A stretch of 64,000 nt of DNA, from positions 431,912 to 495,911 of the forward strand of contig CAZSUC010000001.1 of the NCBI GenBank assembly GCA_964610055.1, given 5' to 3'. The position numbers were made by a program, and so were the translations under genes. Every line of letters starts with the position of its first letter. The first letter of the stretch is position 1. This document shows positions 19,158 through 60,572 of this stretch, in pieces. Under the pieces are notes generated by a model that searched no databases, had not been told where the DNA came from, and saw only the letters and a list, made by a program, of their open reading frames with translations. The stretch comes from an uncultured Candidatus Saccharibacteria bacterium. GTDB taxonomy: Bacteria; Patescibacteriota; Andersenbacteria; UBA10190.

Positions 19158-19261
19158 GGTAATTTAACTGGTCTATTTAGATACTTTTGGTATACCACTC
19201 TTAGAGAAAAGCTACAAGCTGTATGTAGACCGTATGTAGCACAAGGAAGACGCTTAAATTA

Positions 19262-21123: not shown

Positions 21124-21167
21124 GACAACACATTATGCCACGACAGTATCAGAAAGTGAACACTACT

Positions 21168-25384: not shown

Positions 25385-25530
25385 TTCCTGGTACGGATTT
25401 AGAGGCGAGGGCTATATAAACACAAAGCCCGCCGCCAGCTCGCAATCTTTCGATCGCGCATACCCCTTTCGGGGTATGACCGTACCAGGGCTGCTGAACG
25501 ACGGGTTCAGTATCCTGGTACGGGGTTTCA
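25385..25530 (-). promoter_or_regulatory. structured 5' leader RNA with alternative-pairing elements (candidate translational RNA switch)
   Basis: CCTGGTACGG at 25387-25396 and 25514-25523 and its complement at 25478-25487 (inside GACCGTACCAGG, 25478-25489); perfect hairpins CATACCCC-ttt-CGGGGTATG and CTGAAC-gacgg-GTTCAG; GC-rich vs surroundings; the copy at 25387 abuts the AGGAA-ATG of the downstream gene. Confidence 0.45.
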
Positions 25531-25624
25531 ATGCCATGCCTCGAAAATTGAGGTTTAGGCAAATATTCAGTTATGTATCCATTTTTGCTCTAAACAGGCT
25601 TTAAATCAACTTTTCTAAATACCA

Positions 25625-25652
25625 TTGACGATGAGAGCGTTAAGAGTAAAAT
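25625..25652 (+). promoter_or_regulatory. sigma70-like promoter (TTGACG-16-TAAAAT)
   Basis: TTGACG at 25625-25630, TAAAAT at 25647-25652. Confidence 0.45.
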
Positions 25653-25701
25653 TTACTTAGAAGCAACGCTCGTTTAAAGAATAATAAAAAAGGATACTTC
25701 A

Positions 25702-25758
25702 ATGTCTGCAAAAGACGTAGTTGTATTCCCCTACTCCGACGGAGGCGTGCTCCGATAA
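25702..25758 (+). CDS. 18-codon leader ORF (MSAKDVVVFPYSDGGVLR)
   Basis: ATG with AAGGA RBS 6 nt upstream, between promoter and a strong terminator hairpin. Confidence 0.3.
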   Translation: MSAKDVVVFPYSDGGVLR

Positions 25759-25806
25759 CAAATGTAGAGTAGAGCTGGCAGTTAGCCTCGCGGGCGTAAC
25801 AGCGTA

Positions 25807-25876
25807 GAACTGTTCAGTGAAATCGAAGGTGGTTATTTTAACCATTTATTTTCGATGTCACTGAACAGTTTTTTGT
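25807..25876 (+). terminator. long intrinsic terminator / attenuator hairpin
   Basis: GAACTGTTCAGTGAAATCGAA ... TTCGATGTCACTGAACAGTT (about 20-bp stem, 1 mismatch) followed by TTTTTT. Confidence 0.55.
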
Positions 25877-25947
25877 TGGAGATAAGAAAATAAATAACAC
25901 CTTTGCTATCATCGAGCGTGGCTTTATTTAATCCTTCAAATAAAGTC

Positions 25948-27291
25948 ATGAAAAAGACTCCATACAAAAACCAACAAAATATCGACGTCGAGTACGTCAA
26001 CACAAAGAATCTAAAATCAGCGTCATATAACCCTCGGCATTGGAACGACGACGCAAGGAAGCAGCTCAAAGAGAGTGTGCGGCGATTCGGTCTCGTTGAT
26101 CCGATAATCTGCAATAGTGCTCCTTCTCGGAAAAACACAGTCATTGGTGGGCATTTTCGCTTGGCTGTTGCTAAAGAGCTTGGCTTCAAAGAAGTCCCCG
26201 TCGTTTACGTTAATATCCCTACTCTTGAGCGGGAAAAGGAACTTAATCTTCGACTCAATAAGAATCAAGGTGAATGGGATTTTGACCTATTGGCTGAATT
26301 CGATGAGAAATTACTCGCCGATGTCGGATTTAATTCCGAGGAGCTCGATGAAGTATTTGCTGAAATTGAAACGCCAGAAGAATTCGACCTTGAGAAAGAA
26401 CTTCAAAAACTTGATATCAAAACTGTTGAACTCAAGAAAGGTGACATCGTGCAATTAGGTGACAGTCGGATGCTAGTTGGAGACTCGACTATTGAGGCCG
26501 ATTTCATAAAGCTCATGAATGGTGAACAGGCGGACATGTGTCTGACCGATCCCCCATATTTACTAGATTATTTAAACGCCAAGCGTCATGGCAAAGCAGT
26601 AACAGGATTTGGGGCAAAGCGTGATCGACGGTATCTCGAAACGGATGTTTTACCAGATAACTTCACTGAGCTATGGATGGGTAATATTGCCAAGGTACAA
26701 AAAACAAACTTCAGTATTATCGTCTACGAGAATTGGAAGAATCTGCGCGTTATTTGGGAAGAAATGGAAAAGCACTGGAAAGTTAAGAACATGCTGGTCT
26801 GGCATCTGCCGAATCGCCATCAAGGCTTCTCCGCTAAGCACAAATTCTTCAGCAAGCATGACATCGCAATGGTAGGTGCAAGCAAGAATTCCGATGTCAC
26901 TTACAACCATTCCGAAGAAGCAGATGGTCTTCAAGAAGAATATGAGACTGCTTTGTATGCCATAGCCGGAAAACCACACTGGGAGGGATACAAGAAGGGC
27001 AAGAAAGTGATGCCAACTGACTTCATTGAATTCAATGCTTCTGATGAGAAGCATTCTGGGCAGGGCGTTGTGTTCGGTACCAAGCCCATCGAAATCCTCA
27101 TTCCCTACATCAAGGTACTCACGAAACGTGGCGACTTAATCGTGGAGCCATTCGGAGGATCAGGAAGTACATTGATCGCTGCCACGAAAATGAAGCGACG
27201 CTGCTACATCATGGAAAAATCTCCTGTATACGCGGAAGTGATTCGTAAGCGCTGGGAGAAGCTAACTGGGGAGAAAGGAGTGGTTGTATGA
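25948..27291 (+). CDS. ParB-like nuclease domain / DNA methyltransferase fusion (beta-class N6A or N4C)
   Basis: N-terminal ParB motif GGHFRLAVAKELGFKEVPVVYV; DPPY motif IV (CLTDPPYLL) preceding motif I (VEPFGGSGSTLIAA); ORF track begins at TTG 25903, ATG at 25948 more likely. Confidence 0.8.
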   Translation: MKKTPYKNQQNIDVEYVNTKNLKSASYNPRHWNDDARKQLKESVRRFGLVDPIICNSAPSRKNTVIGGHFRLAVAKELGFKEVPVVYVNIPTLEREKELNLRLNKNQGEWDFDLLAEFDEKLLADVGFNSEELDEVFAEIETPEEFDLEKELQKLDIKTVELKKGDIVQLGDSRMLVGDSTIEADFIKLMNGEQADMCLTDPPYLLDYLNAKRHGKAVTGFGAKRDRRYLETDVLPDNFTELWMGNIAKVQKTNFSIIVYENWKNLRVIWEEMEKHWKVKNMLVWHLPNRHQGFSAKHKFFSKHDIAMVGASKNSDVTYNHSEEADGLQEEYETALYAIAGKPHWEGYKKGKKVMPTDFIEFNASDEKHSGQGVVFGTKPIEILIPYIKVLTKRGDLIVEPFGGSGSTLIAATKMKRRCYIMEKSPVYAEVIRKRWEKLTGEKGVVV

Positions 27292-27722
27292 GCAAGGCAC
27301 TAGCCATAAAGCAGAGTAAGAAAAAAGAAGCATTACTTGAACAGCTCAGGAAAGTACCGATTGTGCAACTTGCCTGCGATCGCACTGACGTAAGTCGAGC
27401 AACGTTCTATCGCTGGAAGAAAAGTGATAAGGATTTTGCCGAAGCCGTTGATGAAGCTCTGCTATCAGGATCTTCGCTTATCAACGACATGGCGGAATCA
27501 AAGCTCATTGCCGCTATCAAAGAGGGCAACATGACTGGGATTATCTATTGGCTGAAACATCATCATCCGGCATATACCACCCGAGTAGAGCTGTCTGTGG
27601 GACCGAAGCAAAACGATGAGCTTACCGCTGAACAGCAGCAAGTAGTTCAAGAAGCGCTAGCAAAAGCAGCCCTTATTGAACAAGGGGAAATTAATTCACT
27701 AAATGAAACCTATGAAAAATAA
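27288..27722 (+). CDS. putative terminase small subunit (HTH)
   Basis: 144 aa; HTH RATFYRWKK; start overlaps methyltransferase stop (ATGA) and its end overlaps the large terminase start. Confidence 0.5.
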   Translation: MSKALAIKQSKKKEALLEQLRKVPIVQLACDRTDVSRATFYRWKKSDKDFAEAVDEALLSGSSLINDMAESKLIAAIKEGNMTGIIYWLKHHHPAYTTRVELSVGPKQNDELTAEQQQVVQEALAKAALIEQGEINSLNETYEK

Positions 27723-29151
27723 TATTCTATCGCCTGAAGTATTAGGTCACTTAATGCGTGACCGCATGGCACGACAAGCAGTAGCCTCTCATAACCATCT
27801 TCTGTTCTTCCATATCTACTTATCCCGATACGTAAAGTACGACACTGCAGAATTTCAACGTAAGCTATTCAAGCTCACCGAGGACTCGAGTATCCGACAT
27901 GCAGCTATCGTTGCATTTCGAGGGTCTGCCAAGACAACCATCATGACGCTTTCATACCCCCTTTGGGCTATCCTCGGTGTTCAGCAGCGTAAATTCGTCA
28001 TGCTTTTAAGCCAGACGCAGGGACAGGCTCAACAAATGCTTGTGAATCTGAAGCGTGAGATTGAGAATAATGAAATATTGCGGAATGACTTCGGTGCTCT
28101 TGAGCACGCAACCGATGAGTGGGGTCGAGAATCACTCGTTATCAAAAAATACGGTGCCAAGATTATGGCGGCTTCGAGCGAAACGAGTGTACGAGGCGTA
28201 CGGTTCGGAGAACACCGACCGGATCTCATCATCTGCGATGACGTTGAAGATTTGCAGTCAACCGCTACCCGAGAGGGACGCAATAAGACATATAACTGGC
28301 TCATGGGAGATATCATCCCAGCTGGAGACCGCAACACCCGAGTTGTTGTTATCGGAAATCTACTGCATGAAGACTCACTCCTCATGCGATTAAAAGAAGA
28401 TATGGATCGTGACCGACTTGATGGAGCCTTTCTGCAATTCCCTCTTTTGGATGAGAATGATAAGCCGCTCTGGCCAGGCAAGTTCCCTGACCAAGAAAGC
28501 ATTGATCGTCTACGTAAGACTGTACCAAGCCTACCAGCCTGGCATCGTGAATACATGCTTAACATTGTTCCAAATCAAGACCAGATTGTGCTTCAAGAGT
28601 GGATTAAATATTACGATAACCTTCCGCCAGAGGAGCGCTACAAAACTGTCGTGGCCGTTGATCTCGCAATCGGACTTGAGAAAAACAATGATTACACAGC
28701 AATCCTAAGTGCTCGCATTTATGGGTATGAAGATAAGATGCAGATATTTATTCTGCCAAATATCATCAACAAACGAATGAGCTTCCCAGACCAGCGCCTT
28801 ACGCTACAATCTGTTGCAGATAGCTTGGGGCATCCCAAGATATACATTGAAGATGTCGCCTATCAAAAATCGTTAATCCAGCAATTGAAAGCCGACGGGT
28901 ACAGTGTTGATGGCGCAAAGGTATTCGGACAAGACAAGTTCTCACGTCTCGAAACCGTAACTCATCTTTTGCAAAACGGTCAGGTGTTCTTCCCTCGAGA
29001 ACGTTCCAAGGAGCTTGTTAATCAGCTAACGGGCTTTGGAATTGAGAAACACGATGACCTAGCAGATGCCTTTTCAATTCTTCTGCAAAAAGCGATCGAG
29101 AATAACCGACGGCGAGGGCGAGTATGGGCACATAAGCCAAAGGGATTCTGA
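27703..29151 (+). CDS. phage terminase large subunit
   Basis: 482 aa; ATPase Walker A-like AFRGSAKTT, Walker B LIICDDVED; C-terminal RNaseH-like nuclease (VAVDLAIG...DYTAI). Confidence 0.8.
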   Translation: MKPMKNNILSPEVLGHLMRDRMARQAVASHNHLLFFHIYLSRYVKYDTAEFQRKLFKLTEDSSIRHAAIVAFRGSAKTTIMTLSYPLWAILGVQQRKFVMLLSQTQGQAQQMLVNLKREIENNEILRNDFGALEHATDEWGRESLVIKKYGAKIMAASSETSVRGVRFGEHRPDLIICDDVEDLQSTATREGRNKTYNWLMGDIIPAGDRNTRVVVIGNLLHEDSLLMRLKEDMDRDRLDGAFLQFPLLDENDKPLWPGKFPDQESIDRLRKTVPSLPAWHREYMLNIVPNQDQIVLQEWIKYYDNLPPEERYKTVVAVDLAIGLEKNNDYTAILSARIYGYEDKMQIFILPNIINKRMSFPDQRLTLQSVADSLGHPKIYIEDVAYQKSLIQQLKADGYSVDGAKVFGQDKFSRLETVTHLLQNGQVFFPRERSKELVNQLTGFGIEKHDDLADAFSILLQKAIENNRRRGRVWAHKPKGF

Positions 29152-29159
29152 TGTGCCAA

Positions 29160-30305
29160 CTAGACAAGGACATCATTGGAAGATTTTTCGCCAAAGAATT
29201 CACTAATCATCTCGTTGTATCTAAAGAAAGCACCAAGTAGTTGGAATGCATAGTCTGGTTGGATAATTCCATCCAATCGAAATAGCTTAATCTTTGTCGG
29301 CTTTCCCCTGCTCCTACTAAGAAGAGGATTCCACTCATCCCTAAATCTCTCATTGTGAACTGCTCGGCTATACGCAAAAACAGATCCATCAAAATGAGTA
29401 AACTTTTGCTGAGACCTATCCCATTCTAAGTGTGCAAACCGGTGCAGTACAACCTTGTCAGTAATTCCAGCACTTCCATTAATTGGCAAAATTTCTTCGA
29501 CAGAAATCGATTTCTTAGGTCCTGTCGACTGATTTTTTATATCAAAGACTGTAGCGTTAATCGGGTAGGTATCGTCCAGTATTTTCTTCTGACTATTTTC
29601 CATCCTCTTGTGCAGTGTCGTTCCTACATAATTTTGATCATTCAAATTTTCAATTGAAAAGTAAGGACCATGCCAATAGTCAGCCTCTACATACTCTAAA
29701 TAGTTCTTCGAATCAGTCATTCGGCTTGGATCAACAGCTAACTTAAGCTCAATATCATTATCATCATGAGCCTTCATCAGCAGGCTAGTTGTATCAGTAA
29801 ACTTTCCCTGAAAAAACCTTCGCAAAAATGGATGATAGTAGATAAGCTTATCTCCAAAAATAATTCCCTGTCTTCTTAAATCAAACAAACTAGCTTCTAC
29901 CAAATTATCACCATCAAACTCCAATTTCTCTTTCTTCAAAAAATCTACCACCAAACCACTGCCACCACGTTCAATATAAAAATTGATTCTCGGGAATAGT
30001 TTATCAACGTCATAGGTTATACATGCAAAAACAATATCTTCAATATTTTCAGAGCCCATTGGAAATAGCAGAAGTTTAAGATCAGGATATTTTTCCATTA
30101 AATCTTGAATATCTGCTTTTTTAACTCTCGTCTTATAAATAGCATCGAGCTTATCGTATAGGTGACGTAGCTGACTGCTATTTAGATAAAAATTTAAACG
30201 AGTAGGAATTCCATCCCTATGAAAAAGCTCTTGGGAAAAGTTGTTGAGCAATTCCTCCTCTGAGCTATTACCACCAACAAAATTGAGAATCGTCTTTTCT
30301 TGCAT
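29160..30305 (-). CDS. hypothetical protein (island cargo, unknown function)
   Basis: 381-aa ORF convergent with terminase large subunit; no recognisable motifs. Confidence 0.45.
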   Translation of the reverse strand: MQEKTILNFVGGNSSEEELLNNFSQELFHRDGIPTRLNFYLNSSQLRHLYDKLDAIYKTRVKKADIQDLMEKYPDLKLLLFPMGSENIEDIVFACITYDVDKLFPRINFYIERGGSGLVVDFLKKEKLEFDGDNLVEASLFDLRRQGIIFGDKLIYYHPFLRRFFQGKFTDTTSLLMKAHDDNDIELKLAVDPSRMTDSKNYLEYVEADYWHGPYFSIENLNDQNYVGTTLHKRMENSQKKILDDTYPINATVFDIKNQSTGPKKSISVEEILPINGSAGITDKVVLHRFAHLEWDRSQQKFTHFDGSVFAYSRAVHNERFRDEWNPLLSRSRGKPTKIKLFRLDGIIQPDYAFQLLGAFFRYNEMISEFFGEKSSNDVLV

Positions 30306-30377
30306 ATAAATAGCATAACATTTGAGGCCAGTTACCTACTTCCCTTGTAGAAAACCTTGCGGCACTGTTGACCTGCT

Positions 30378-31661
30378 ATGAGCGACATCCGCTACTGCCT
30401 ATATGCCAGAAAATCGTCAGAACGGGACGAACTTCAAGCCCTTTCAGTGGATTCCCAAGTAAAAGAGATGCAGGACATGGCTAGACGAGATGGGATTAAC
30501 GTGGTGGAGATATATCGAGAAAGTCACTCAGCTAAAGACTCGGGGCAACGTCCGGTATTCATGAAGCTAATTGAAGATATTAGGAGTAGCAAATTCAATG
30601 GAATTCTGACATGGGCGCCAGACCGCTTAAGCAGAAACGCTGGTGACCTGGGATCACTAGTTGATCTCATGGATCAAAAGAAGCTTGAAGAAATCCGCAC
30701 TCACGGTCAGACATTCCATAACTCGCCGAATGAAAAATTCTTACTCATGATCCTGTGTAGCCAAGCCAAGCTTGAGAACGACAATCGAGGACTAAATGTG
30801 AAGCGAGGCCTGCGCGCTAAGTGTGAGATGGGGTATAGGCCAGGGGTATCGCCGCTTGGGTATCTCAACAATAAATTTGCGAAGAAGGGCGAGAAGAAAG
30901 TTACACTTGATCCCGCTCGCGCGCCCATTATTAGGGAGATGTTCGAGAAGGTCGCATATGAAGGCTACAGCGGCCATCAAATACTAAGATGGATTAACAA
31001 TGAGACCGACTTTACTACCAGATCAGGAAAACAAATGGTGCTAAGCACCGTCTATCTCCTACTTCGCGATACTTACTACTATGGGAAATTTGAATACCCG
31101 AAGGGTAGCGGAAATTGGTACAAAGTTAATCACAAATCAATCATCACTAAGAAGATATTTGATCTGGTACAAGAAAATATCGTGGCTACAAAAAAGCGTA
31201 AGCCCGGAACACTGGAGTTCGACTTCACTCGGCTCATAACTTGCGGTGAGTGTGGCTCTGGAATATCAGCGGAGGAGAAATACAAACAACTTAAAAACGG
31301 ATCAGTAAATAGATATGTGTATTACCGATGCAGTAAGGGCAAGCGAGTAGAATGTCACGAACCGTACGTAAGAGAAGAAAACCTTGTTGAGCAGCTATTA
31401 CAGCTGATAGACAATCTGGATATGGATAAAATGCTTATTAGTAATAAGCTAGCCAAAGAATTAGAAAAGTACCAAAAGTTCGCATCTGGAGTGCTGCAGG
31501 TAGAAGAAATTAGTAGTACGCCAAAAGTAGATATTCGCAGTTATGCGAAGTATGTTTTAAAAGAGGGCAGTCGAAGCGAGAAAAGAGACATCTTATCTTG
31601 TCTGCAAACAAAATTAATTCTTACCAATCAAAAAATTTCTCTTAGAGCGCATAGCAACTAG
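30378..31661 (+). CDS. large serine recombinase
   Basis: 427 aa; resolvase catalytic domain YCLYARKSS...Q; recombinase domain; zinc ribbon CGECGSG...YYRCSKG. Confidence 0.9.
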   Translation: MSDIRYCLYARKSSERDELQALSVDSQVKEMQDMARRDGINVVEIYRESHSAKDSGQRPVFMKLIEDIRSSKFNGILTWAPDRLSRNAGDLGSLVDLMDQKKLEEIRTHGQTFHNSPNEKFLLMILCSQAKLENDNRGLNVKRGLRAKCEMGYRPGVSPLGYLNNKFAKKGEKKVTLDPARAPIIREMFEKVAYEGYSGHQILRWINNETDFTTRSGKQMVLSTVYLLLRDTYYYGKFEYPKGSGNWYKVNHKSIITKKIFDLVQENIVATKKRKPGTLEFDFTRLITCGECGSGISAEEKYKQLKNGSVNRYVYYRCSKGKRVECHEPYVREENLVEQLLQLIDNLDMDKMLISNKLAKELEKYQKFASGVLQVEEISSTPKVDIRSYAKYVLKEGSRSEKRDILSCLQTKLILTNQKISLRAHSN

Positions 31662-31678
31662 TCTAAGTAGGTACCTGC

Positions 31679-34600
31679 CTAAGCACTGCATATAACATCA
31701 AGATCTGTTCCAATAGTTTCTTTCAAGTAACTATGCGCAGCTGCAAGTACGGCTGCTTGCTCCGGGGTATGCGAAGCAAGCGAAAGCCCTGGTTGGACTA
31801 TAACTATCTCTGACCTTATCTCTTTAAACCTACTTACCTTTACATAGCGGTTAAGGTCTGAGGTTTGACCTACCAAAAAACGAGTTGCTCTGACCACTTT
31901 TATCAATCTCTTCTCTCTTCCCAAAACATGGCGGCATAAATCTCTAAATTTCCATTTCCACTTTGCTGACCGAATAGCCTGAGAACACACTTCAACTACA
32001 TCATTTACTCGTTCACCGGGGGTACTTCCCTTTGTAAATTTGCAATGAACCAATGTGAGTCTAATATGATCATCCTCTTCCTTTAAACAAACAAGATCAG
32101 CCGCCTCTCCTGAAGCGTCGTCATTAAATACCACGTCAAAGCCCCCTTCAATGAAATGCTGCGCAGCACGCCACTGAATCGAATCCAAATGCTCAGCGCC
32201 CTCTTTCCACATTGATTCCTTGCTAATGTCCACACCTTCCCAATCCCAAACCTCAAATCTTTCTACGGGAAAAGTGAGATCTTGTGTGCTCTGAGGGCGA
32301 ATCAGAAGGTTGCCATCCAGTTCTGATAGATCCATAAAACGTATTAGTGGAGGATAGTTAGAAAAATACTCTTCAACTTTCACTTCTAAGGAGCCGACTC
32401 GAATTTTTAGTTCCATCGAAGATGAGCGAGTAACCCGAAAGCCCTCTATACCCCCAACAGTTAGTTTAAAAATCCCCCAAACATCTCCTGTACTTGAACG
32501 AAGTTGGAAATCAACCTCACTAGTTGTTGCATCAGAGTGTAGTATTTCGATATCAAACATAGCAATCGATAGCTCATCATCTCCCTTTAGCAGTGTCACG
32601 CGCTCTTCCGACTGACGTATCAACTCTACCGGCCAGTCGATGCTTAATATTTGTGCGTCTGGAAGAGCGGTAACCTCTTCCGGAATCAAAACGTTTTCAA
32701 TAATTTTTTTTGTATCAATAGTATCGTCTTTCAACTTCCTACCAACAGCTTCACACCATCTTACAAGCTCGGGTACAGTCCCGGGCTCACGGGCCCAAAT
32801 ACGGCCCTTATATGAACACCCTATTGTTACCGGCCCACCATTTTCCCAGCCTGTTCCACTCAGGTTTGATTTTATAGATCCAGCTCTTTCTGAAATACTT
32901 AGAGCTTCTGCAACATCAGAACCTGTATACAACGCGTACCTTAAATTACGTCGCCCATGCTTCCGAACTCCCACATTTTGAAAAATCAGGCGATTAATAT
33001 TGCCAAGCGACCGAAAAATTATATCTCCTGATATTATCTGTGTACCACCGACTGCTAATGCAACCTTTTCATGATTTGAAGATTTGTCGCTCGATGACAG
33101 AAAAAGCAACCCTTGATCCTGATCATAGTGAAGAACAAAAAGATCCCATATGCGATCACGAATCTTTTTTGAGCGGGTCCACCGGATCGGTGGCTCCAGC
33201 CGAGTTACAAAATAAAGAGTATTTGTTTCCTCATGAAGCCATACCCTATGCACATTGAGACCTTTTGGTATTCCTTTAAAAAACCTTTTTGGGTTAAAAG
33301 ATGCTGCTTCATAGACAAGGGTACTGAAAGTTGGCCTTAGAAGATGGTGCGATATCTCAAGCTCCTCATCACCGTCAACTTCATCAAGTCTCTGTGACGA
33401 GTTAAGAAATTCAACCAAAGATGCGTGAGACCGAGCAGCATCAGAACTAAGCTCACTTAGAAGGTGGTTCCAGTCAGCATCTTCACTGTAAAGTCTTTCT
33501 AAAGCAGAAGACACACCTTGCTCGGCAATATTCGCAATCACAGTTGCATCACCAATTGACTCAGCAGAACTTCGAGTAAATCTTCCGGTAAATTGCAGAA
33601 GTATTGCTAAACTTTTGTGCGTATCATGAATAGCGGCAACTTTCAGTTGAGGAAGATCAAAACCTTCTCCTAGCATATTAACACACACGACTATTCGACT
33701 CCCTCCAGACCTTAACGTGTCTATCAATCCATCGGTATCAGCTAAATCAGAGTGAACAAGAACAGGGTTAAGATCGGGAGCAATTTCTTGATAAATTTGG
33801 CAAACATAGCTAGCCCTGCTTATGTTTGCACATCTTGCCATCATTATGTGGTTTTTCCCTGAGGCGACATCTTCACGTAAACGATCCACTGCAGCTTTTG
33901 CAATTGCCTGATCGGCTGCCTCTTGGTCAATCTCATAAACTGATTCAAAAGAAATCTTTTTGAAATATCCATCACGCTGTGCCAATTGAAGTGGGTATTC
34001 ATAAATCACTTTCCCATCAACCAACTTCCCATCTCGCCGATATGGTGTGGCAGTAAACTGTAAAACTTTGCACGCAGAAAAATTTTCACGGAAAGATGCC
34101 CAACCCTTTGCTGCGACGTGATGAGCCTCGTCAACAATTAAAGTATCAACTACTTCCGCAACTGCAGGTAGCAGACTAGATGTAACACTTCCAGTTAAAG
34201 CGCTCATGGTAGCTACTACTACGTTGCAATCCTCGAATATGCTGACTTCATCCTTAGTCCGGGGGCGCCTGGTAACTATTCCCACAATAGGGTTTTTTGC
34301 TCCAGGCATTAGGTTCCCAAGTGATCGCAGTAAGCCAAGGGTAAGAAATTTTTTAGCCGTTTGATCGCGCAGCACTCTAGACGGAACCACAACTAGTAAC
34401 CTCCCAGAGGCATATGCGATCAAGGTGGCAAGCATTGTCTCGGTTTTGCCAGTACCTGTGGGCATTACGATGGTAGCTGGCTGATTATTCAAGCTCCAGT
34501 GTGAACCGATTGCATGCAGTCCTCCTATTTGAGGTGGCCTTAAACCCTTCGATACAACATTACCAGCTTTATCCCTCTCCTCAGCATGAAAACTAAACTT

Positions 34601-34999
34601 ACCATTCCAACTAGCTGCTATTTCGGTTGCAATGTGCTTAAGGCCTTTTTGTTCAACATTTTCTTGAAATTCATCAAGTAATCTATGGGATAACCACTTT
34701 GATTCAGTACTAGCATCAATTTGCAATATGCCGTCCACACTAGAGGGACGAGAAAGTTTTTTTCGTTCTGTAACAATAATTGCTTGCCCGTCCGAGAGTT
34801 TGTATAGTTTTTCCCTAATTCTAGAAGAGACCTGAATGTCCTCAATGCTAATCACATCTTTTACCCCACCTTCTCCCAAAACGTGACTAATGTGCCCCAC
34901 GGCATGTTTAAGAGGTCCAAACTCAAGAGCAGGGAGTTTCAATTTCGTTGCAGTATTTTCTGATTCTAAATTTGGACTCATTATTGATATTAGAGACAA
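31679..34999 (-). CDS. SF2 DEAH-box helicase with large C-terminal region ending in a putative PD-(D/E)xK-like nuclease domain
   Basis: 1106 aa; Walker A MPTGTGKT, Walker B LIVDEAHHV, motif III FTATP, motif V NMLGEGFDLP, motif VI QFTGRFTR; C-terminal GEAADLVCL...LTLVHCKF; ORF track start is TTG, first ATG at 34981. Confidence 0.65.
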   Translation of the reverse strand: MSLISIMSPNLESENTATKLKLPALEFGPLKHAVGHISHVLGEGGVKDVISIEDIQVSSRIREKLYKLSDGQAIIVTERKKLSRPSSVDGILQIDASTESKWLSHRLLDEFQENVEQKGLKHIATEIAASWNGKFSFHAEERDKAGNVVSKGLRPPQIGGLHAIGSHWSLNNQPATIVMPTGTGKTETMLATLIAYASGRLLVVVPSRVLRDQTAKKFLTLGLLRSLGNLMPGAKNPIVGIVTRRPRTKDEVSIFEDCNVVVATMSALTGSVTSSLLPAVAEVVDTLIVDEAHHVAAKGWASFRENFSACKVLQFTATPYRRDGKLVDGKVIYEYPLQLAQRDGYFKKISFESVYEIDQEAADQAIAKAAVDRLREDVASGKNHIMMARCANISRASYVCQIYQEIAPDLNPVLVHSDLADTDGLIDTLRSGGSRIVVCVNMLGEGFDLPQLKVAAIHDTHKSLAILLQFTGRFTRSSAESIGDATVIANIAEQGVSSALERLYSEDADWNHLLSELSSDAARSHASLVEFLNSSQRLDEVDGDEELEISHHLLRPTFSTLVYEAASFNPKRFFKGIPKGLNVHRVWLHEETNTLYFVTRLEPPIRWTRSKKIRDRIWDLFVLHYDQDQGLLFLSSSDKSSNHEKVALAVGGTQIISGDIIFRSLGNINRLIFQNVGVRKHGRRNLRYALYTGSDVAEALSISERAGSIKSNLSGTGWENGGPVTIGCSYKGRIWAREPGTVPELVRWCEAVGRKLKDDTIDTKKIIENVLIPEEVTALPDAQILSIDWPVELIRQSEERVTLLKGDDELSIAMFDIEILHSDATTSEVDFQLRSSTGDVWGIFKLTVGGIEGFRVTRSSSMELKIRVGSLEVKVEEYFSNYPPLIRFMDLSELDGNLLIRPQSTQDLTFPVERFEVWDWEGVDISKESMWKEGAEHLDSIQWRAAQHFIEGGFDVVFNDDASGEAADLVCLKEEDDHIRLTLVHCKFTKGSTPGERVNDVVEVCSQAIRSAKWKWKFRDLCRHVLGREKRLIKVVRATRFLVGQTSDLNRYVKVSRFKEIRSEIVIVQPGLSLASHTPEQAAVLAAAHSYLKETIGTDLDVICSA

Positions 35000-35127
35000 T
35001 TGTTAACCCCATACAATAGTATATCCACGACACTTAGGCACGCCTGGACTTAGGGGCACTTCTGTGCTCCATATGATAATTGAGACCTTGGATAGAGTCC
35101 GGTTGACTCGAACTAAATTGGCTTGCT

Positions 35128-35198
35128 CCGGGACAGGGATTCGAACCCCAATTTTTGGGACCAGAACCCAACGTCCTGCCGTTAGACGATCCCGGAAT
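35128..35198 (-). tRNA. tRNA-Gln (anticodon CUG)
   Basis: Cloverleaf derived by hand: acceptor tccggga/tcccgga, anticodon arm ttggg-ttCTGgt-cccaa, T-arm ggggTTCGAATccct. Confidence 0.7.
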
Positions 35199-35276
35199 AA
35201 GTATTCATAAACTACCTTAAAAGTATAAAGTAAGCAACTAGTCAAATCAGGTCATTCGGGGTACAGTAAAGCCCGA

Positions 35277-35350
<74 letters not shown>

Positions 35351-35374
35351 CTAGCATGTGGTATAATCAAGAAC

Positions 35375-41113: not shown

Positions 41114-41911
41114 ATGGATAATCACGAATTAGAGGACTACTTAATATTCGCCAAACAATTAGCTAGTGAAGCCGGTGAGATCATGCGTCAGTATTTTAGA
41201 AGCGATGATATAGAGCAGCGTGAAAAAGACGACAAAACTATTGTCACCATAGCGGATGAGAAGATAAACAATATTGTAATTGAGCGCATTGCAAAATCTT
41301 ATCCTCGGCATGCTGTTTTTGGCGAAGAAGCGAGTCTAATTCAAGAATCGGAATATACCTGGGTTTGCGATCCAATTGATGGTACTTTTCTTTTTGCAAA
41401 AGGTATCCCTATGGCAGTTTTCTCGCTCGCTCTAGTCAAAAATGGTGAACCTCTTGTCGGGGTTGTCTATGACCCTTTTCTAGACATTTTCTATACGGCC
41501 ATAAAGGGACAAGGCGCTTTTATGAACGACAAGCAAATTCATGTTAGTACAAAACTATTAGATTATAGAGCGGCTTTAAATTTAGAAGATTGGCCAAGTG
41601 CAGAATTGCAGTTTCATCAAATGAAAATGTTGGCACAAAAAGAAAAAAGTCTAGATTTTTATCGAATCGGCAGTATCGTACATGTCAGTTGTTTGGTCGC
41701 ACAAGGAGCATTTGAAGCCGCTATTTTTGCCGGAACCGCTAAAAAATGCGACATAGCCGCGGTAAAAGTGATCGTTGAAGAAGCGGGCGGAAAAGTTACA
41801 GATGTTAACGGTCATCAACAGCGATACGATGGTGACATTAACGGAGCCATCGTATCTAATGGCATTGTTCATGAACAATTAGTTGATCTGATCAAAAGAA
41901 GCTCAGGTTAA
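41114..41911 (+). CDS. inositol monophosphatase family protein
   Basis: 265 aa; FGEEAS metal motif and WVCDPIDGT signature. Confidence 0.85.
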   Translation: MDNHELEDYLIFAKQLASEAGEIMRQYFRSDDIEQREKDDKTIVTIADEKINNIVIERIAKSYPRHAVFGEEASLIQESEYTWVCDPIDGTFLFAKGIPMAVFSLALVKNGEPLVGVVYDPFLDIFYTAIKGQGAFMNDKQIHVSTKLLDYRAALNLEDWPSAELQFHQMKMLAQKEKSLDFYRIGSIVHVSCLVAQGAFEAAIFAGTAKKCDIAAVKVIVEEAGGKVTDVNGHQQRYDGDINGAIVSNGIVHEQLVDLIKRSSG

Positions 41912-49310: not shown

Positions 49311-50444
49311 CTAAGCCGTGATCGTTGGTTCCGCTGGCGTGCGGATTGCTCGTCCAATTGTGACTAAGATACTTCCCAGTGTCATCAGAGTTATAATCGC
49401 CACTGTCAGCCAACCTAAAATCGGAATCGCACGGATAATTGCTAATGCTAACGCTCCCACCAACGCTTCTCTCCAGCCCAATTTGCGCTCCTCATTTCCT
49501 TTGAAGACATATTTTGCTAAATACGCCCCCGTAATCACATGCGCATACGCAACTGCCAAAATTCCCAGGGCGATCGTAGCGATTCCAATAAAACCAGCAG
49601 CTGGAATTCCGATGACTGTAATTACCAGAATAAAGACGGCCGGTACACAAGCCACCATCCAACCTAATCCCCAAACGAAACTCTTACCCGGATGTTCTTT
49701 TTGCTGCTTGATAATTCGTGTTGCTAAACTCGGTGCTATTAATATCAAAAGCCATGCTAAAATCGACCAAGTTACAATCCGGCGCGCAATATCGGTAATC
49801 CACACCATTCCTGTCCATGACGCCATCCCGTCTGTTTTCTGTCTAGCATTTGCTTGTAAGTGATAATGGTGCCGCTCTCCTCGAACCAAGGCTCCATCTT
49901 CTGCAATAATAGTTGGTTCCGTATCGCCGTAAGTTAATAAGTCGCCGTTAATTTCTGTGTTATTACCTAATCGAATCGTATCCGCAGCTACTTTAACGTT
50001 ACCGTCAATTTTACCGCGAAGAACAACAGTTGCGCCGGCTAAGTAAACATCGCCAGTCACATGCGTGTCTTGGCCAATCAAGACGGAACTTCCGGCCGCA
50101 ATTACATCATCGACTGTGGTGGGTTCAATCATCAGCGCGCTTCCGGCCGCAATCACATCATCGCCAACTGCTCCGCGCACCATCACTGATTGTCCTGCCG
50201 CAATTACATCTCCCGTGACATTTTTTGTGACTTCCACCGTACTGCCTCCGGCCATGACATCCCCCTGGACGTCACCACGGACCGAAACGACTTGGCCGGC
50301 TGCGTACACATCATCATCTACTGCTTGGCTGAAATCAGCATTTCCTTCCGACAAAAAAGTCGCAGCTAGCGCTGCTACCGGCAAGCCAACTAATGCTGCC
50401 GTGATAGTCATGCTGGCTAATAAATATGGAAAAGGTTTGGTCAT
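49311..50444 (-). CDS. bactofilin-like (DUF583) beta-helix repeat protein with signal peptide and C-terminal polytopic membrane domain
   Basis: 377 aa; repeated GDV...AAG...V units; C-terminal ~170 aa with several TM helices. Confidence 0.55.
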   Translation of the reverse strand: MTKPFPYLLASMTITAALVGLPVAALAATFLSEGNADFSQAVDDDVYAAGQVVSVRGDVQGDVMAGGSTVEVTKNVTGDVIAAGQSVMVRGAVGDDVIAAGSALMIEPTTVDDVIAAGSSVLIGQDTHVTGDVYLAGATVVLRGKIDGNVKVAADTIRLGNNTEINGDLLTYGDTEPTIIAEDGALVRGERHHYHLQANARQKTDGMASWTGMVWITDIARRIVTWSILAWLLILIAPSLATRIIKQQKEHPGKSFVWGLGWMVACVPAVFILVITVIGIPAAGFIGIATIALGILAVAYAHVITGAYLAKYVFKGNEERKLGWREALVGALALAIIRAIPILGWLTVAIITLMTLGSILVTIGRAIRTPAEPTITA

Positions 50445-56762: not shown

Positions 56763-56791
56763 CTTTGACACTCGCTTTTAACAAGCGTACA
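56763..56791 (+). promoter_or_regulatory. sigma70-like promoter (TTGACA-17-TACATT)
   Basis: TTGACActcgcttttaacaagcgTACATT upstream of the RBS-bearing ATG at 56852; the ORF-track N-terminal extension starts at the TTG inside this -35 box. Confidence 0.45.
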
Positions 56792-56851
56792 TTCACCTTG
56801 TTGTTTTTATTGCCCGTTCTCTTGTTCTCTTCATTCATTGGAGAAAGAACC

Positions 56852-58027
56852 ATGTTAGAAGGCATCGACATTGCGTACTGCAACGCAGCGATTGAGGCGT
56901 TGCTGAGTGCTAACAAGACTTTGTTAGGCACTGCGATTGCAGAAGCTGTCAACCCCTCTCACGTCTGGTGCAAGGGTGATACCTTGGGGCTTGATCGAGG
57001 CCCAGAAAACGCTATCACGCAGGAATTTTCCGGCTTTGACAGTCGCGCTATCATTATCTCAGAAGAAGTTGGTGAATTTGCCAATCCCTTGTTGGGGCAG
57101 GGCTTCGGAAACGTTTCCGGTGCTCGGACGTTCATTGGATGCGATCCCTTTGATCGTTCCAAGAATGCTCGTGCGTTTATTCAAGAACACTCTCAAGGTA
57201 GGCAATACGTTAGCGATCTGGTTTTAGGTGAACCGAATGTCGTTCATCTTTGGGAAGCAAAGTACGGTGCTCCTGCCAGTGTGACTGGATTTAGCGGCGC
57301 CGCAACCATCGTGCGCCGTGGTGTTCCGATCGGTACCGTCATGTTCAATTATTTAACTCAACAGATTTTCCTCTGCTGCCAAGCCGGTTTCTTCTATGCA
57401 TCCGTGACGACGGACAATCAGTCTGCTATCAGTGTTGCCTATTTGCGCCAGCATGGCACCCCGATCACTTTCCCGAACATTACTAATCAGGATTTTCGAC
57501 GGATTGTGACATTTCTCGGCAAACCTGAGCGTGGCTATCCGCAAAACTTTTCCGCCATCAACCTGGTCAATGACACTGAGTTGTCTCAGTGTTTGCATGA
57601 TCGTGAAGCCGGTGGGCCTTTACGTGTTCTCTACCTCTCCTCCTTGTACGCCAATGCTAATCCGGATCAGCAGATTGGCATTATTGTGGCCAACGGGGAA
57701 AAATTTGGAGAATGGCTCCACTGGCTCTCGCCGGTTCGTTTCTGCGCTCGCACTGACGACCCGTCTGATCCCGCTCTGCGTATTTTTGAGGTCTCGCAAG
57801 ATCAATCACCAATGCGAGACGGGTATCTCATGATGCCGTCTCCGATTTACAGTGCTTTTTGTCGGGTGGACGATCGCGATCCGCGCGTGACCTTTGATGT
57901 TGAAAGGCTGCAGGGCCTGGATAATCCGAGCCGGTATCGCGCCACTCTTTTGCTTGTCCCCGCAACCAACAAATGGGCGATCAGCCGTATTCAACAATAC
58001 GGGTACCGGGAACTTATCTTCCCCTAA
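56852..58027 (+). CDS. hypothetical protein, weak similarity to IMPase/FBPase superfamily; higher-GC acquired gene
   Basis: Start MLEGIDIAY with RBS GGAGAAAG; ISEEVGE and GCDPFDRS resemble IMPase metal-binding motifs; local GC ~52% vs ~42% background. Confidence 0.4.
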   Translation: MLEGIDIAYCNAAIEALLSANKTLLGTAIAEAVNPSHVWCKGDTLGLDRGPENAITQEFSGFDSRAIIISEEVGEFANPLLGQGFGNVSGARTFIGCDPFDRSKNARAFIQEHSQGRQYVSDLVLGEPNVVHLWEAKYGAPASVTGFSGAATIVRRGVPIGTVMFNYLTQQIFLCCQAGFFYASVTTDNQSAISVAYLRQHGTPITFPNITNQDFRRIVTFLGKPERGYPQNFSAINLVNDTELSQCLHDREAGGPLRVLYLSSLYANANPDQQIGIIVANGEKFGEWLHWLSPVRFCARTDDPSDPALRIFEVSQDQSPMRDGYLMMPSPIYSAFCRVDDRDPRVTFDVERLQGLDNPSRYRATLLLVPATNKWAISRIQQYGYRELIFP

Positions 58028-58078
58028 TCCCACTGCCATCCGCTGTCTTGAAAAAGACAACGGATTATTTAAAAACTA
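58003..58078 (+). repeat. direct repeat copy 1 (~75 bp; 3' end of upstream gene plus terminator hairpin)
   Basis: GGTACCGGGAACTTATCTTCCCC..TAATCCC..CCATCCGCTGTCTTGAAAAAGACAACGGATTATTT recurs at 59313-59392. Confidence 0.7.
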
Positions 58079-58219
58079 GCGGCGGCATTCTGATCCTGTA
58101 CTCCTGACTATCAAATAACAAGTAGAGACTGCGGGTCTCGTTTCCAAAGAAAAAGCCCCACTGAACATCATGTTAGTGAGGCCTCTACTAAGATAATCTG
58201 TTTCGTGGTTCTTGCTTAC

Positions 58220-59101
58220 TTAGATCAACTGCGTTACCTTCATGGGCTTGAAACTGAAGTGATGAAGATAACACGTCTGCATCGCCCATCCTGCCGGCAC
58301 CCACATCGCGTGTGGTGGCTGTTCTTTCCAGTAACAATCGCGACTAGGACGTAAATTATCACAGGTAATGTATCCGAGAGGGGGAACTTCATCCCACCAT
58401 GCCTCATCCGTTTCCTGTGATCCGAACGGTGCATCACTCGGCTTATCGCCGCAACGGACGTGCAGAATGTGCGCGCTGGCACCTTGAGCGTTCCGGCTCG
58501 AGCCGATACTAATATGGAAATAGAAATTCCACACTACCATCGGGTCTTCATCGAGACACTCTGCCAGTTCGCTCAACCGCGCCCACCGCCATCTTTTTAC
58601 GCGAGTGAAATTGGGGTGACGAACGCTGGGGGTGTTGGTGATTTTATTACCCTTGACCTTACGAGCCACCACGAAATCCTCCCACTTAAGGGAGTAGCAA
58701 TCGGAGTAGCAGGTGCAGTTTTCCCAGCATAGGACTCCGAAGGGTTGATCAGCGACAAGAGCGTACTTCCAGTGCTCGCGTCCGTGGTATTCAGGAAAGT
58801 CATCGTCACCAATGTTGATCGAACCGATGCAGCCCAGGACGTAATGCTGAAGATTGATGGGTGAATGACTGAGCGTAGCCAGTCGTTCTGTTTCAACGTA
58901 GTCGCGAAGCAGTTTCCGGCCTTCTTTCTCGCCACTGATCTGCATCAGCTCCTCGGGCAGAGGAAGAACCGGCTTCATCTGTTCAGCAGGAACCGCGGTA
59001 TTCAGTGAACGAAACACAGCAATCCAACTTCCATCAGGAATGTCCGTTTCCACGAACTCTCCCTTACCCCTCTCCAACATCCTGACAGTACGAATCTTCA
59101 T
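58220..59101 (-). CDS. hypothetical protein (GC-rich cassette gene)
   Basis: 293-aa ORF, ~55% GC; Cys/Trp-rich; no motif recognised. Confidence 0.4.
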   Translation of the reverse strand: MKIRTVRMLERGKGEFVETDIPDGSWIAVFRSLNTAVPAEQMKPVLPLPEELMQISGEKEGRKLLRDYVETERLATLSHSPINLQHYVLGCIGSINIGDDDFPEYHGREHWKYALVADQPFGVLCWENCTCYSDCYSLKWEDFVVARKVKGNKITNTPSVRHPNFTRVKRWRWARLSELAECLDEDPMVVWNFYFHISIGSSRNAQGASAHILHVRCGDKPSDAPFGSQETDEAWWDEVPPLGYITCDNLRPSRDCYWKEQPPHAMWVPAGWAMQTCYLHHFSFKPMKVTQLI

Positions 59102-59312
59102 GGTAAATCTCCTTCATAGCGACTCGATTGTTTTTCAGAAAGCCATCGCTCTGCTTTCTGATGCCGCAGGAACTATCCAGCGGAAGATGTCAAAAAACAG
59201 TAAAACCAGATTCAGTTTCTAAAAGAACCTATATTCTATAGAATATATTCATTCTAGTGTCAATGTTTTTGATGATCTAGCTACCTACAGCTTACCTTAG
59301 GTCATTAATACT

Positions 59313-59392
59313 GGTACCGGGAACTCATCTTCCCCCCCCTAATTCCCCGCCACCATCCGCTGTCTTTTTCAAGACAGCGGATTATTGAAACA
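59313..59392 (+). repeat. direct repeat copy 2 (perfect 12-bp stem ATCCGCTGTCTT/AAGACAGCGGAT)
   Basis: CTGGTACCGGGAACTCATCTTCCCCCCCCTAATTCCCCGCCACCATCCGCTGTCTTTTTCAAGACAGCGGATTATTG. Confidence 0.7.
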
Positions 59393-59765
59393 CTTTCATT
59401 GGATCTGAGCCCCAGTAAACAGCTCGAATTTTATCTGTCTTATCAAGCTCGTATTTCAATATCTCTCCAATGCCATCAAAATCATTACCACCAGTAATTT
59501 GAAACATATCCTTCCCTGCTAATTTCAAAGGAGATAATCCATCTGTCGGATCATGGGCAAGCGGAAAAAACATACACAAAGAACCGTTGATTTCAATCAC
59601 ATCAGTTTCTCCCCAACGCGAAGTAAAACGTCCTTCATATTTACTTAAATTAATTTGACTCTTTTTCTCTTGCGTATTTAGAAAATGCCATAAAGTCGAG
59701 AATATGCCATCTATCAATATAAACGGCAAGCGTGAAGATAAACAAGCTATTCTGGCGTGTGTCAC
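59382..59765 (-). CDS. hypothetical protein
   Basis: 127-aa ORF between repeat copy 2 and tRNA-Gln(UUG). Confidence 0.35.
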   Translation of the reverse strand: MTHARIACLSSRLPFILIDGIFSTLWHFLNTQEKKSQINLSKYEGRFTSRWGETDVIEINGSLCMFFPLAHDPTDGLSPLKLAGKDMFQITGGNDFDGIGEILKYELDKTDKIRAVYWGSDPMKVFQ

Positions 59766-59818
59766 TACGGTTTTGTATCTGAAGTCAAAAGCAATCAGAA
59801 CCTCGCGACCGAAACTAG

Positions 59819-60526
59819 TTAATCGGCCACAAATAAGTGAATGACTAACTGATTAGCGAAATCATATACATTCAAAAACATTTGTTTATCAACAAACCTC
59901 TTTGCAGTATCCCAAATTATCGGGTTGTCTTTGGCGAGCACATCCAATTCTTCCATCGTTCTGGTTTTAAGATTTACATGTTTCACTTTTGGCGCGACTA
60001 CGTCCTTGGTTAACTTTTTTATATTGTAATGAAGATAAGGATTTCTAACCGTATTTTTAAAACTATTCAACTGCTTCACCATTTTTCCGTCAATAAGTTC
60101 AATATTTTTTGCCTCAACAATGACAGATCCTAGCTCCATTGATTCAATTCTATCCCACTCCTCTTGGCTGTAAGTTTCTCCGGATTTCTTTTTAACGATG
60201 GCATACTTTATAGAAAATTCTACAAGAATAGCGCTAAGGGAAATAGCTGCGCCATACAATCCAAAAAGGATGCACTCTCTTATTTCGTTATAAAGAGTCT
60301 CAATTTCTGGGATTGCGATAGTAGGAGTCTTGGGTAGCTTTTCAATAATGGCAAGGGCCTCTAATCTCCTTTGCTTAAATAACTCCTCGACAAACTGATC
60401 TGCTGTTTTTGTAATGTGTTTGATATCGGCTCCTTGTTTTTCGAGCTCCTTTAGGGTTTCTGGATTTGCAATAATATGCGTGCTTCCTTTCGCTAATTCT
60501 GATAGAAAATCGTTAATGTCTTGCAT
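59819..60526 (-). CDS. hypothetical protein adjacent to tRNA-Gln(UUG)
   Basis: 235-aa ORF, low GC, no recognisable motif. Confidence 0.4.
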   Translation of the reverse strand: MQDINDFLSELAKGSTHIIANPETLKELEKQGADIKHITKTADQFVEELFKQRRLEALAIIEKLPKTPTIAIPEIETLYNEIRECILFGLYGAAISLSAILVEFSIKYAIVKKKSGETYSQEEWDRIESMELGSVIVEAKNIELIDGKMVKQLNSFKNTVRNPYLHYNIKKLTKDVVAPKVKHVNLKTRTMEELDVLAKDNPIIWDTAKRFVDKQMFLNVYDFANQLVIHLFVAD

Positions 60527-60572
60527 AGGAGGTTGGATAGGAAATGGTCGGTTTTAGAACCTGTTTTTAGTG

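Follow-up and report, generated by a model that had tools for sequence, protein, structure and literature searches.

Introduction

A single crossover of a circular DNA duplicates the homologous segment as direct repeats. The target duplications made by known transposition chemistry measure 2–15 bp, and large serine recombinases are of a type that does not produce long repeats. Integron cassettes usually consist of a promoterless ORF; CIMEs are defined by the att sites of a known ICE/IME family and by mobilisation in trans. Hairpins, in turn, are known sites of template switching and of loop flips. Integration into the 3′ end of a gene is documented for e14 in icd/icdC (PMC13626634).

Here, we describe a locus whose geometry, by analogy, resembles that of e14 in icd/icdC. 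It lies in a 64-kb stretch of DNA that was analysed as a whole (the window; 9% of a 698-kb genome). A discrete foreign unit with a gene for a 293-aa protein (g2) is inserted at the 3′ end of a gene for a 391-aa protein (g1) and its hairpin, and the direct repeats on either side are best read as a recombination joint; to this extent, the original prediction for this DNA is supported. Integration appears to have happened here once and left a scar; there is no sign of a mobile cassette system at work. The features are, in order along the window:

56852–58027, plus strand: g1, conserved Patescibacteria protein of 391 aa, ATG at 56852
57991–58077, plus strand: repeat copy 1 (87 nt), with the 3′ end of g1 in frame, stop codon, spacer, hairpin and A/T tail
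58038–58065, no strand assigned: copy 1 hairpin, 12-bp stem with one C·A mismatch, loop GAAA
58078–58149, no strand assigned: 72 nt separating copy 1 from the conserved g2 module, with a small hairpin GAGACTGCGGGTCTC
58150–58186, minus strand: terminator-like hairpin and T-run of g2 (GCCTCACTAACATGATGTTCAGTGGGGCTTTTT), conserved with locus L004; distal end of the module
58220–59101, minus strand: g2, 293-aa orphan protein, the cargo; GC 0.52, GC3 0.575
59102–59200, minus strand: 5′ leader of g2, ~100 nt, conserved in all four g2 loci
59235–59296, minus strand: promoter-like region of the g2 module, TTGACA at 59263–59258 and TATAGA at 59240–59235
59302–59394, plus strand: repeat copy 2 (93 nt), with a pseudo-3′ end of g1 that is displaced and out of frame, a hairpin and a tail
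59355–59382, no strand assigned: copy 2 hairpin, perfect 12-bp stem, loop TTTC
59382–59765, minus strand: g3, 127-aa ORFan, GC 0.37, with its stop codon in the tail of copy 2

The direct repeats

The repeat is non-random and sharply bounded, and it is slightly longer than first noted (87 and 93 nt). The 2 copies share 73 of 87 aligned bases (84%), with 14 mismatches and 6 gap columns; the full alignment scores 104, against a mean of 22 and a maximum of 38 in shuffles. Beyond either end, local alignment is at the level of shuffles (p 0.38 and 0.87). When the window was scanned for 2 sub-motifs of the repeat with up to 3 mismatches allowed, each occurred exactly twice in 64 kb, where chance would give 0.00–0.03 occurrences. 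A third copy is absent from the window, including in a window-wide repeat search.

The copies differ in what they do for g1. Copy 1 holds the last ~9 codons of the gene and completes it, ending in YGYRELIFP in agreement with the family consensus YGYREIxF. Copy 2 has a run of 8 C where copy 1 has 4, which shifts the frame, and carries Trp in place of Gly at a conserved position.

Differences between the copies are spread unevenly. The stem arms are identical at 23 of 24 columns, the spacer at 6 of 11, and the loop at none of 4; the loop of copy 2 is the exact reverse complement of that of copy 1, as if flipped. The coding part is well kept (34/42 columns) although it is non-functional in copy 2; of its differing columns, 4 are indels, and 2 of its 4 mismatches fall within the doubtful first 10 nt. 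This pattern, which comprises 20 differences only, fits 2 copies that were each constrained as a real gene end before they were joined, and appears to match decay following a local duplication less well.

Folding gives z −3.9 for the hairpin of copy 1 (MFE −18.4 kcal/mol) and z −7.8 for that of copy 2. The element had been called a terminator: the hairpin with its 12-bp stem stands, but it has no clear T-run and drew no call from a terminator scan. The exact hairpin pattern ATCCGCTGTCTTNNNNAAGACARCGGAT has zero matches in JGI metagenomes and IMG/VR.

The target gene and its surroundings

The target gene, g1, encodes 391 aa from the ATG at 56852, not 420 aa as proposed earlier, and its product is identical to database protein P0001. 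It has 59 homologues, the best at 63% protein identity, and 124 relatives in GTDB species representatives, mostly Patescibacteria; neither Pfam nor NCBIfam matches it. A motif-level resemblance to inositol monophosphatase is visible (DPFDRS vs DPIDGT). It was not accepted as evidence that g1 belongs to that family (PDB E=0.12; hhalign probability 1%).

The rise in GC reported for this region is real: the highest 500-nt values of the window (0.49–0.53; window mean 0.432, sd 0.031) lie within 57.0–59.0 kb. The reading of g1 and g2 as one higher-GC block does not hold; probably, only g2 is a newcomer. The GC3 of g1 (0.531) is that of its family (mean 0.533, in hosts of 38–47% GC), and scattered genes upstream of it are common to relatives (xseA, tspO, and a Na/Ca exchanger). 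Because of this family-typical composition and these traces of synteny, we regard g1 as probably resident and outside the foreign island.

On the far side of the insert, g3 matches only itself among 5.8 billion clusters; before the insertion, it would have been convergent with g1. A tRNA-linked island was considered and rejected, as the 3′ part of tRNA-Gln(ttg) at 60572–60643 matches only the other tRNA-Gln at 35124.

The insert and the g2 module

The insert between the repeat copies (58078–59301, 1.2 kb) carries a single gene, g2. Its GC3 of 0.575 stands against 0.31–0.42 in neighbouring genes and ~0.36 in the host. Only 3 close homologues exist, all in unrelated contexts and at ~74% nucleotide identity, and these are equally GC-rich at third positions (0.60–0.65, in hosts of 30–46% GC). 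Judged by this deviant composition and by the GC-rich homologues in unrelated contexts, g2 is clearly foreign. A simple local tandem duplication of this region is ruled out: the copies enclose a foreign module of deviant GC3 whose homologues lie in other genomes.

The protein has no match in Pfam, NCBIfam, PHROGs, or PADLOC, and profile scans returned 2 short, uninformative JGI contigs and zero viral contigs. AF2 gave a model of no use from 4 sequences (pLDDT 31) and a good one from 22 (pLDDT 82). The predicted fold has no recombinase match, only a weak similarity to a wHTH sub-domain.

The module that this locus has in common with L004 runs from the promoter-like region to the terminator-like hairpin and ends abruptly at 59296 and 58150. 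The promoter-like region extends to the module boundary GGTAAGCTGTAGGTA (59296–59282), which is common to L004; as it does not pass a promoter scan under strict settings, the region is called promoter-like only. In the leader, a predicted stem pairs UUUCUU with the Shine-Dalgarno sequence AAGGAG. No known Rfam family was found within 57.9–59.5 kb, the leader included; a weak match of ctRNA_p42d at 58150–58186 (E=1) was taken as chance. The 72 nt at 58078–58149 align to no g2 locus.

Recombinases, variants, and relatives

Neither the insert nor the 10 kb around it holds an integrase, transposase, or other recombinase, and the ends of the insert bear no inverted repeats. In the whole window, a single recombinase turned up, of the large serine type (30378–31661, 26 kb off); those genes of the window that have a Pfam call include none of the tyrosine type.

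Across both junctions, all Logan contigs of 3 runs (SRR8925805, SRR8925806, and SRR8925775) match the window at 100% identity. Since these are independent contigs, an assembly artefact is ruled out, and the arrangement appears fixed among the contigs of the 3 samples. Within g2, the Logan contigs break at 58316–58344 and at 58507. Cassette absence or inversion had been suggested as something that reads might reveal; the contigs of the 3 runs show the inserted form only, and no empty site, inverted variant, circular form, or second insertion was seen in them.

A duplicated gene 3′ end occurs at none of 80 other GTDB loci of the g1 family, and direct repeats of at least 16 nt flank none of the 3 other g2 loci; therefore, the repeat does not belong to the g2 module as such. 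Pairing of g1 with g2 is likewise absent at these loci (0/80 g1 loci, 0/3 g2 loci), and downstream of L090, the nearest homologue of g1 (63%), lies a different gene. The databases hold no close relative that could show the pre-insertion state: 63% at the protein level is the nearest for g1, and g3, an ORFan, gave no homologue by which to locate an empty site. The proposal of recurrent cassette exchange by a still-mobile unit, with further copies in relatives, finds no backing in the window, at the 80 g1 and 3 g2 loci, in the hairpin search of JGI metagenomes and IMG/VR, or in a nearby recombinase.

How the module may have been gained

Our preferred reading, to which we give a probability of about 0.5, is that the g2 module integrated via a single crossover of a small circular DNA at the 3′ end of g1. 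In this scenario, g2 would be a horizontally acquired, self-contained single-gene module (promoter-like region, structured leader, CDS, hairpin and T-run) inserted between the convergent g1 and g3, and the ~90-nt direct repeats would be recombination joints analogous to attL and attR. The circle, of ~1.3 kb, would have carried g2 together with a related but non-identical version of the g1 3′ end, hairpin, and tail, and one recombination event, RecA-type homologous or mediated by a recombinase in trans, would have joined it to the resident copy. After integration, copy 1 would complete g1, and copy 2 would persist as a displaced pseudo-3′ end still serving g3. That a circle was involved, that it crossed over once, and that one of the copies stems from a related genome are inferences from the scar.

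This reading is favoured because copy 1 is in frame and encodes a family-typical C-terminus while copy 2 is frameshifted, and because the module common to L004 ends abruptly. Also in its favour are the non-random, sharply bounded repeat, the spread of the differences between the copies, the foreign character of g2, the resident look of g1, and the documented precedent of e14. The reading is weakened by the lack of a recombinase in the insert or within 10 kb; by the contigs of the 3 runs, which show no circular form, empty site, or second insertion; by the other g2 loci, which are without flanking repeats; by the 72 nt at 58078–58149, for which it does not account; by the small number of differences (20) behind their distribution; and by databases that hold no close relative to show the pre-insertion state. 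The unit is most likely an immobile scar today.

A first alternative, which we consider unlikely, is one-sided homologous (homology-facilitated illegitimate) recombination in the course of DNA uptake. A related strain would have supplied DNA comprising its own g1 allele, the hairpin, and g2, and this DNA would have replaced most of the resident g1. On one side, g1 would have been the homologous anchor; on the other, an illegitimate joint would have formed ~90 nt short of the resident gene's end. Copy 2 would then be a remnant of the old allele, and g1 and g2 would have arrived together. The adjacency of 2 GC3-rich genes (0.53 and 0.575), the 84% identity of the copies, as expected of alleles from 2 lineages, and the nature of copy 2 as a pseudo-3′ end all agree with such an event. 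The composition of g1, however, is the mean of its family in comparable hosts and needs no special explanation. The upstream neighbours of g1 are common to relatives, a synteny that replacement of the allele only would keep. The model needs, moreover, a donor with g2 beside g1, and this pairing is absent from the 80 g1 and 3 g2 loci.

No better placed is a duplication made during illegitimate insertion itself, by fill-in of a widely staggered break or by template switching or replication slippage at the hairpin, after which the copies would have diverged in place, one loop flip included. The sharp ends of the duplication and the loops, exact reverse complements of each other, speak for such a course, which we hold to be improbable on 3 counts. 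A divergence of 16% plus indels implies a long time, yet the GC3 of g2 is still 0.575 in a host of ~0.36; divergence does not peak in the parts that have no function (g1 codons of copy 2, tail of copy 1); and a target duplication of ~90 nt is far above what known transposition chemistry makes.

An active, non-classical system that exchanges cargo at terminator hairpins, with the repeat as its recombination site, is very unlikely. Such a system could resemble an integron or be a cis-mobilisable element that depends on a recombinase located elsewhere. Just 2 copies of the repeat exist in 64 kb, an exact counterpart of the hairpin is missing from JGI metagenomes and IMG/VR, and neither copy has the GTTRRRY/RYYYAAC core on either strand. 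No tyrosine recombinase is among those window genes that have Pfam calls, g2 has a promoter-like region of its own, unlike typical integron cassettes, the contigs of the 3 runs show no variants, and the other g2 loci lack the repeat. Least probable of all, and to be named as speculation, is a minimal integrase-less cassette spreading among Patescibacteria at gene-end hairpins, in which a protein with an Xis/MerR/Par-like wHTH sub-domain would recruit a host recombinase or be a new recombination protein, and the leader would control expression.

Significance of the locus

The g2 locus is a clean, dated-looking case of orphan-gene gain by a reduced CPR genome (~0.7 Mb), with a joint preserved well enough for inferring the geometry of the event. 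If excision or further copies came to light in closer relatives or at the level of reads, it would hint at an integrase-independent route of gene gain in bacteria with few classical mobile elements; for the present, it is chiefly a thoroughly documented scar of integration. As by-products, the analysis yields 2 protein families that are uncharacterised and a conserved leader that is in no catalogue, which may merit attention.

Comparison with known systems

Unlike transposons and IS elements, the g2 locus has no transposase and no terminal inverted repeats, and its duplication is ~90 nt rather than 2–15 bp. Integron cassettes resemble it in that imperfectly palindromic sites enclose a cargo of ~1 kb with a single ORF. 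It differs from them in having no IntI, attI, or R″/R′ core sequences, in a cargo with a promoter-like region and a terminator, and in a repeat that overlaps flanking coding ends. The likeness to CIMEs lies in a cargo between 2 att-like direct repeats with no recombinase of its own; unlike for CIMEs, no cognate element or integrase was found within the window.

Campbell-type integration and homology-facilitated illegitimate recombination likewise place foreign DNA beside a homologous anchor. These are laboratory-defined processes, whereas at the g2 locus such an event is read from the scar alone.

The likeness to e14 and phage 21 (icd of Escherichia coli with the icdC pseudogene) has 3 parts: imperfect direct repeats flank the inserted DNA; the gene-side copy completes the frame, while the far copy is a displaced C-terminal pseudo-fragment; and the copies differ by scattered, partly synonymous changes (PMC13626634). 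In scale and equipment, the 2 differ. e14 measures ~15 kb, has its own integrase, and excises on SOS induction; the g2 insert, by contrast, spans 1.2 kb, holds a single gene, and lacks a recombinase, the contigs give no hint of its excision, and the duplicated coding part amounts to just ~9 codons.

Gene layout and composition

Across 56.85-59.1 kb, GC stands at 0.48-0.54 against a window mean of 0.432, which bears out the rise claimed in the original prediction. The region is laid out as follows:

56852-58027, plus strand: g1, 391 aa
58220-59101, minus strand: g2, the cargo gene, 293 aa
59382-59765, minus strand: g3, 127 aa
59819-60526, minus strand: g4, 235 aa
60572-60643, minus strand: tRNA-Gln(ttg)

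The database protein for g1 starts at ATG 56852 and has 391 aa; the 420 aa first proposed correspond to an ORF from TTG 56765, a mechanical maximum, and are set aside. The stretch that separates the insert from tRNA-Gln(ttg) contains two ORFans with a GC of 0.37, g3 and g4 (59382-60526); for g3, 5.8 billion clusters yielded no homologue. The two may stem from another, earlier acquisition, but a tRNA-derived repeat that would mark an island is absent.

A probably native gene and a foreign one

High GC is a trait of the g1 family. In the 75 GTDB loci that exceed 4 kb, the median GC excess of g1 homologues over their flanks is 5.2 points, and no homologue falls short of its flanks by more than 5; g1 itself has a GC of 0.512 and a GC3 of 0.531, and in the 33 hosts whose flank GC is 0.38-0.47 the family's mean GC3 is 0.533 ± 0.084. 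Upstream neighbours in common with the window are scattered among relatives: xseA beside the closest homologue (L090), tspO (L073), and a Na/Ca exchanger (L041). Given this family-typical composition and these neighbours, we infer that g1 is resident in the genome.

The homologues (L010-L089) are GC-richer than their own genomes (mean GC3 0.53 in hosts of ~43% GC), reaching +13 to +21 points at L016, L018, L030, L044, L054, and L070; recurrent transfer, codon selection, and biased conversion are candidate causes. A DPFDRS motif in g1 aligns with DPIDGT of inositol monophosphatases, a homology too weakly supported to claim (PDB profile E=0.12; hhalign probability of 1% against the window's own IMPase, 41114-41911).

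The cargo gene g2 is foreign: its GC3 is 0.575 against 0.31-0.42 in eight neighbouring genes. Searches returned only three close homologues at 53-74% identity (5.8 billion protein clusters) and 26 remote ones (1.84 billion representatives). The close homologues sit on short contigs in unrelated contexts, with no adjoining g1 homologue, and on all three contigs are far GC-richer than their surroundings (GC3 0.654 in L003, from a ~30% GC host, 0.605 in L004, and 0.631 in L005). Nucleotide identity between these loci and the window is ~74% and reaches beyond the CDS. The module common to the window and L004 extends from GGTAAGCTGTAGGTA (window 59296) to a hairpin and T-run ending at window 58150, enclosing a TTGACA/TATAGA promoter-like region, the leader, and the CDS. 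At both ends the similarity breaks off sharply; since 74% identity makes neutral flanks unalignable, these ends mark a functional unit, not necessarily a mobile one.

The predicted cassette carrying the 293-aa gene between repeats is upheld, and shown to be foreign, by the gene's GC3 and by the unrelated contexts of its homologues. Of the two-gene higher-GC block, the high GC of both genes stands and the single unit does not, g1 being typical of its family and syntenic upstream; the block would consist of a native GC-rich gene and one foreign gene.

A conserved leader of ~100 nt precedes g2 at each of the four loci:

window 59102-59200, minus strand
L003, 1308-1410
L004, 648-758
L005, 20-131

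In one predicted stem UUUCUU pairs with the Shine-Dalgarno sequence AAGGAG; another stem, AGCGAC/GTCGCU, hardly varies. The four sequences hold only one compensatory pair, and no Rfam family matches. The leader may be a cis-regulatory RNA.

In L003 (800-2300), the g2 homologue has a GC of 0.55 and a DUF2103 gene just upstream 0.48, both GC-rich for that ~30% GC host. The foreign segment there may comprise two genes. In two of three runs the Logan contigs are interrupted within g2 (58316-58344 and 58507) rather than at the repeats; the two contigs of SRR8925805 share a 29-nt overlap of the sort left by a branch in the assembly graph. The breaks might reflect, among other causes, a second g2-like allele in the community.

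The direct repeat

The sequence at 57991-58077 (copy 1) recurs in the same orientation at 59302-59394 (copy 2). In local alignment 73 of 87 aligned positions are identical and 14 are mismatched, and a further 6 columns are gaps; at 104, against a shuffle mean of 22 and maximum of 38, the score confirms the predicted repeats as real and non-random. Beyond either end, flanking sequence does not align better than shuffled sequence does. Allowing ≤3 mismatches, the 64-kb window contains exactly two occurrences of each sub-motif (0.00-0.03 expected), and a window-wide repeat search found no further copy. Mis-assembly was rejected because independent contigs from three sequencing runs (SRR8925805, SRR8925806, and SRR8925775) match the window at 100% identity over both junctions. 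Elsewhere, at 50075-50214, a 38-nt unit in three tandem copies at 51-nt spacing probably encodes a protein repeat within a 377-aa bactofilin/DUF8173-like gene (49311-50444, minus strand).

Each copy comprises the last ~9 g1 codons and stop, an 11-13-nt spacer, a hairpin, and a 13-nt A/T-rich tail; the g3 stop codon sits within the tail of copy 2. The hairpin has a 12-bp stem (folding z -3.9 in copy 1 and -7.8 in copy 2, plus strand). Of the terminator originally claimed, the hairpin is present; a clear T-run is absent, and a terminator scan made no call.

Copy 1, continuous with g1, encodes the C-terminus typical of the family, YGYRELIFP. Copy 2, displaced from the gene, is a fragment that is out of frame (C8 versus C4) and has Gly changed to Trp at a conserved position. 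The C8 run (59331-59338; G8 on the minus strand) has the same length in three runs and lies ~70 nt upstream of g2's -35-like TTGACA. Differences cluster in two parts: the spacer, with 6/11 columns identical, and the loop, with 0/4, where GAAA in copy 1 is the exact flip of TTTC in copy 2. Conservation is higher in the stem arms (23/24) and in the g1 codons (34/42 columns, a count that takes in a 4-base C-run indel and a doubtful first 10 nt), although the codons of copy 2 are non-functional.

Origin of the joint

The locus has the geometry of an element integrated into a gene 3' end. Differences centred on spacer and loop, with non-functional codons kept, would follow if each copy had first evolved as a genuine gene end and the two were joined afterwards; they are less expected of decay after in-place duplication. 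Together with the repeat geometry, this favours single-crossover integration: g1 ends would have evolved in two related lineages, a ~1.3-kb circular DNA would have brought g2 with a related, foreign copy of the g1 end, and RecA or a recombinase acting in trans would have made the crossover.

One-sided homologous recombination is a possible alternative, in which an allele replacement brought g1 and g2 together and left copy 2 as the old allele's remnant; the GC of g1 does not call for it, however, and the g1-g2 pairing is seen at none of the 80 other g1 loci or three other g2 loci. Illegitimate insertion could have made the duplication, with later divergence, and would suit the sharp repeat ends and the loop flip, but it fits poorly with the distribution of differences and the lasting foreign composition of g2.

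An active cassette system is disfavoured, g2 being the sole gene in the insert and matching no recombinase family by sequence or predicted fold. No recombinase gene lies within 10 kb; the window yielded a single one, which belongs to a separate prophage-like or mobile island (L091):

19160-35322: island
20143-21123: TIR_2 protein
25903-27291: ParB_N + N6_N4 methyltransferase
27703-29151: Terminase_6C-like protein
30378-31661, plus strand: large serine recombinase
31679-34999: DEAD/ResIII helicase, 1106 aa

The island also carries an HTH_3 regulator and a LOOT RNA at full length (Rfam RF03000; 25441-25561, minus strand; 82.9 bits versus a gathering score of 46.4), which lies between the ParB-methylase gene and an 851-aa ORF; the island's end adjoins tRNA-Gln(ctg) 35125-35196 and tRNA-Arg 35278-35351. 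Integron core sequences, read by eye, are absent from the repeat, no tRNA-derived repeat was found, and the insert ends carry no inverted repeats. Neither JGI metagenomes nor IMG/VR contain an exact match to the hairpin, and the three other g2 loci lack flanking repeats. Further repeat copies with other cargo, which the prediction proposed looking for, were found neither in the window nor as a 3'-end duplication at the other g1 loci (0/80); contigs of the three runs show a single arrangement, without cassette absence or inversion. In the 9% of the genome and the more distant relatives that were covered, nothing found supports the stronger reading of a non-classical mobile unit, which is improbable.

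The preferred reading of the feature is a scar from one integration event, in which a foreign module with a single gene entered at the 3' end and hairpin of a gene already resident. In Escherichia coli, icd runs into prophage e14, whose far end carries the C-terminal pseudogene icdC (PMC13626634). Here too the gene is completed by the near copy and a displaced 3'-end fragment lies at the far end, so that the joint is best read as a fresh instance of an already known kind.
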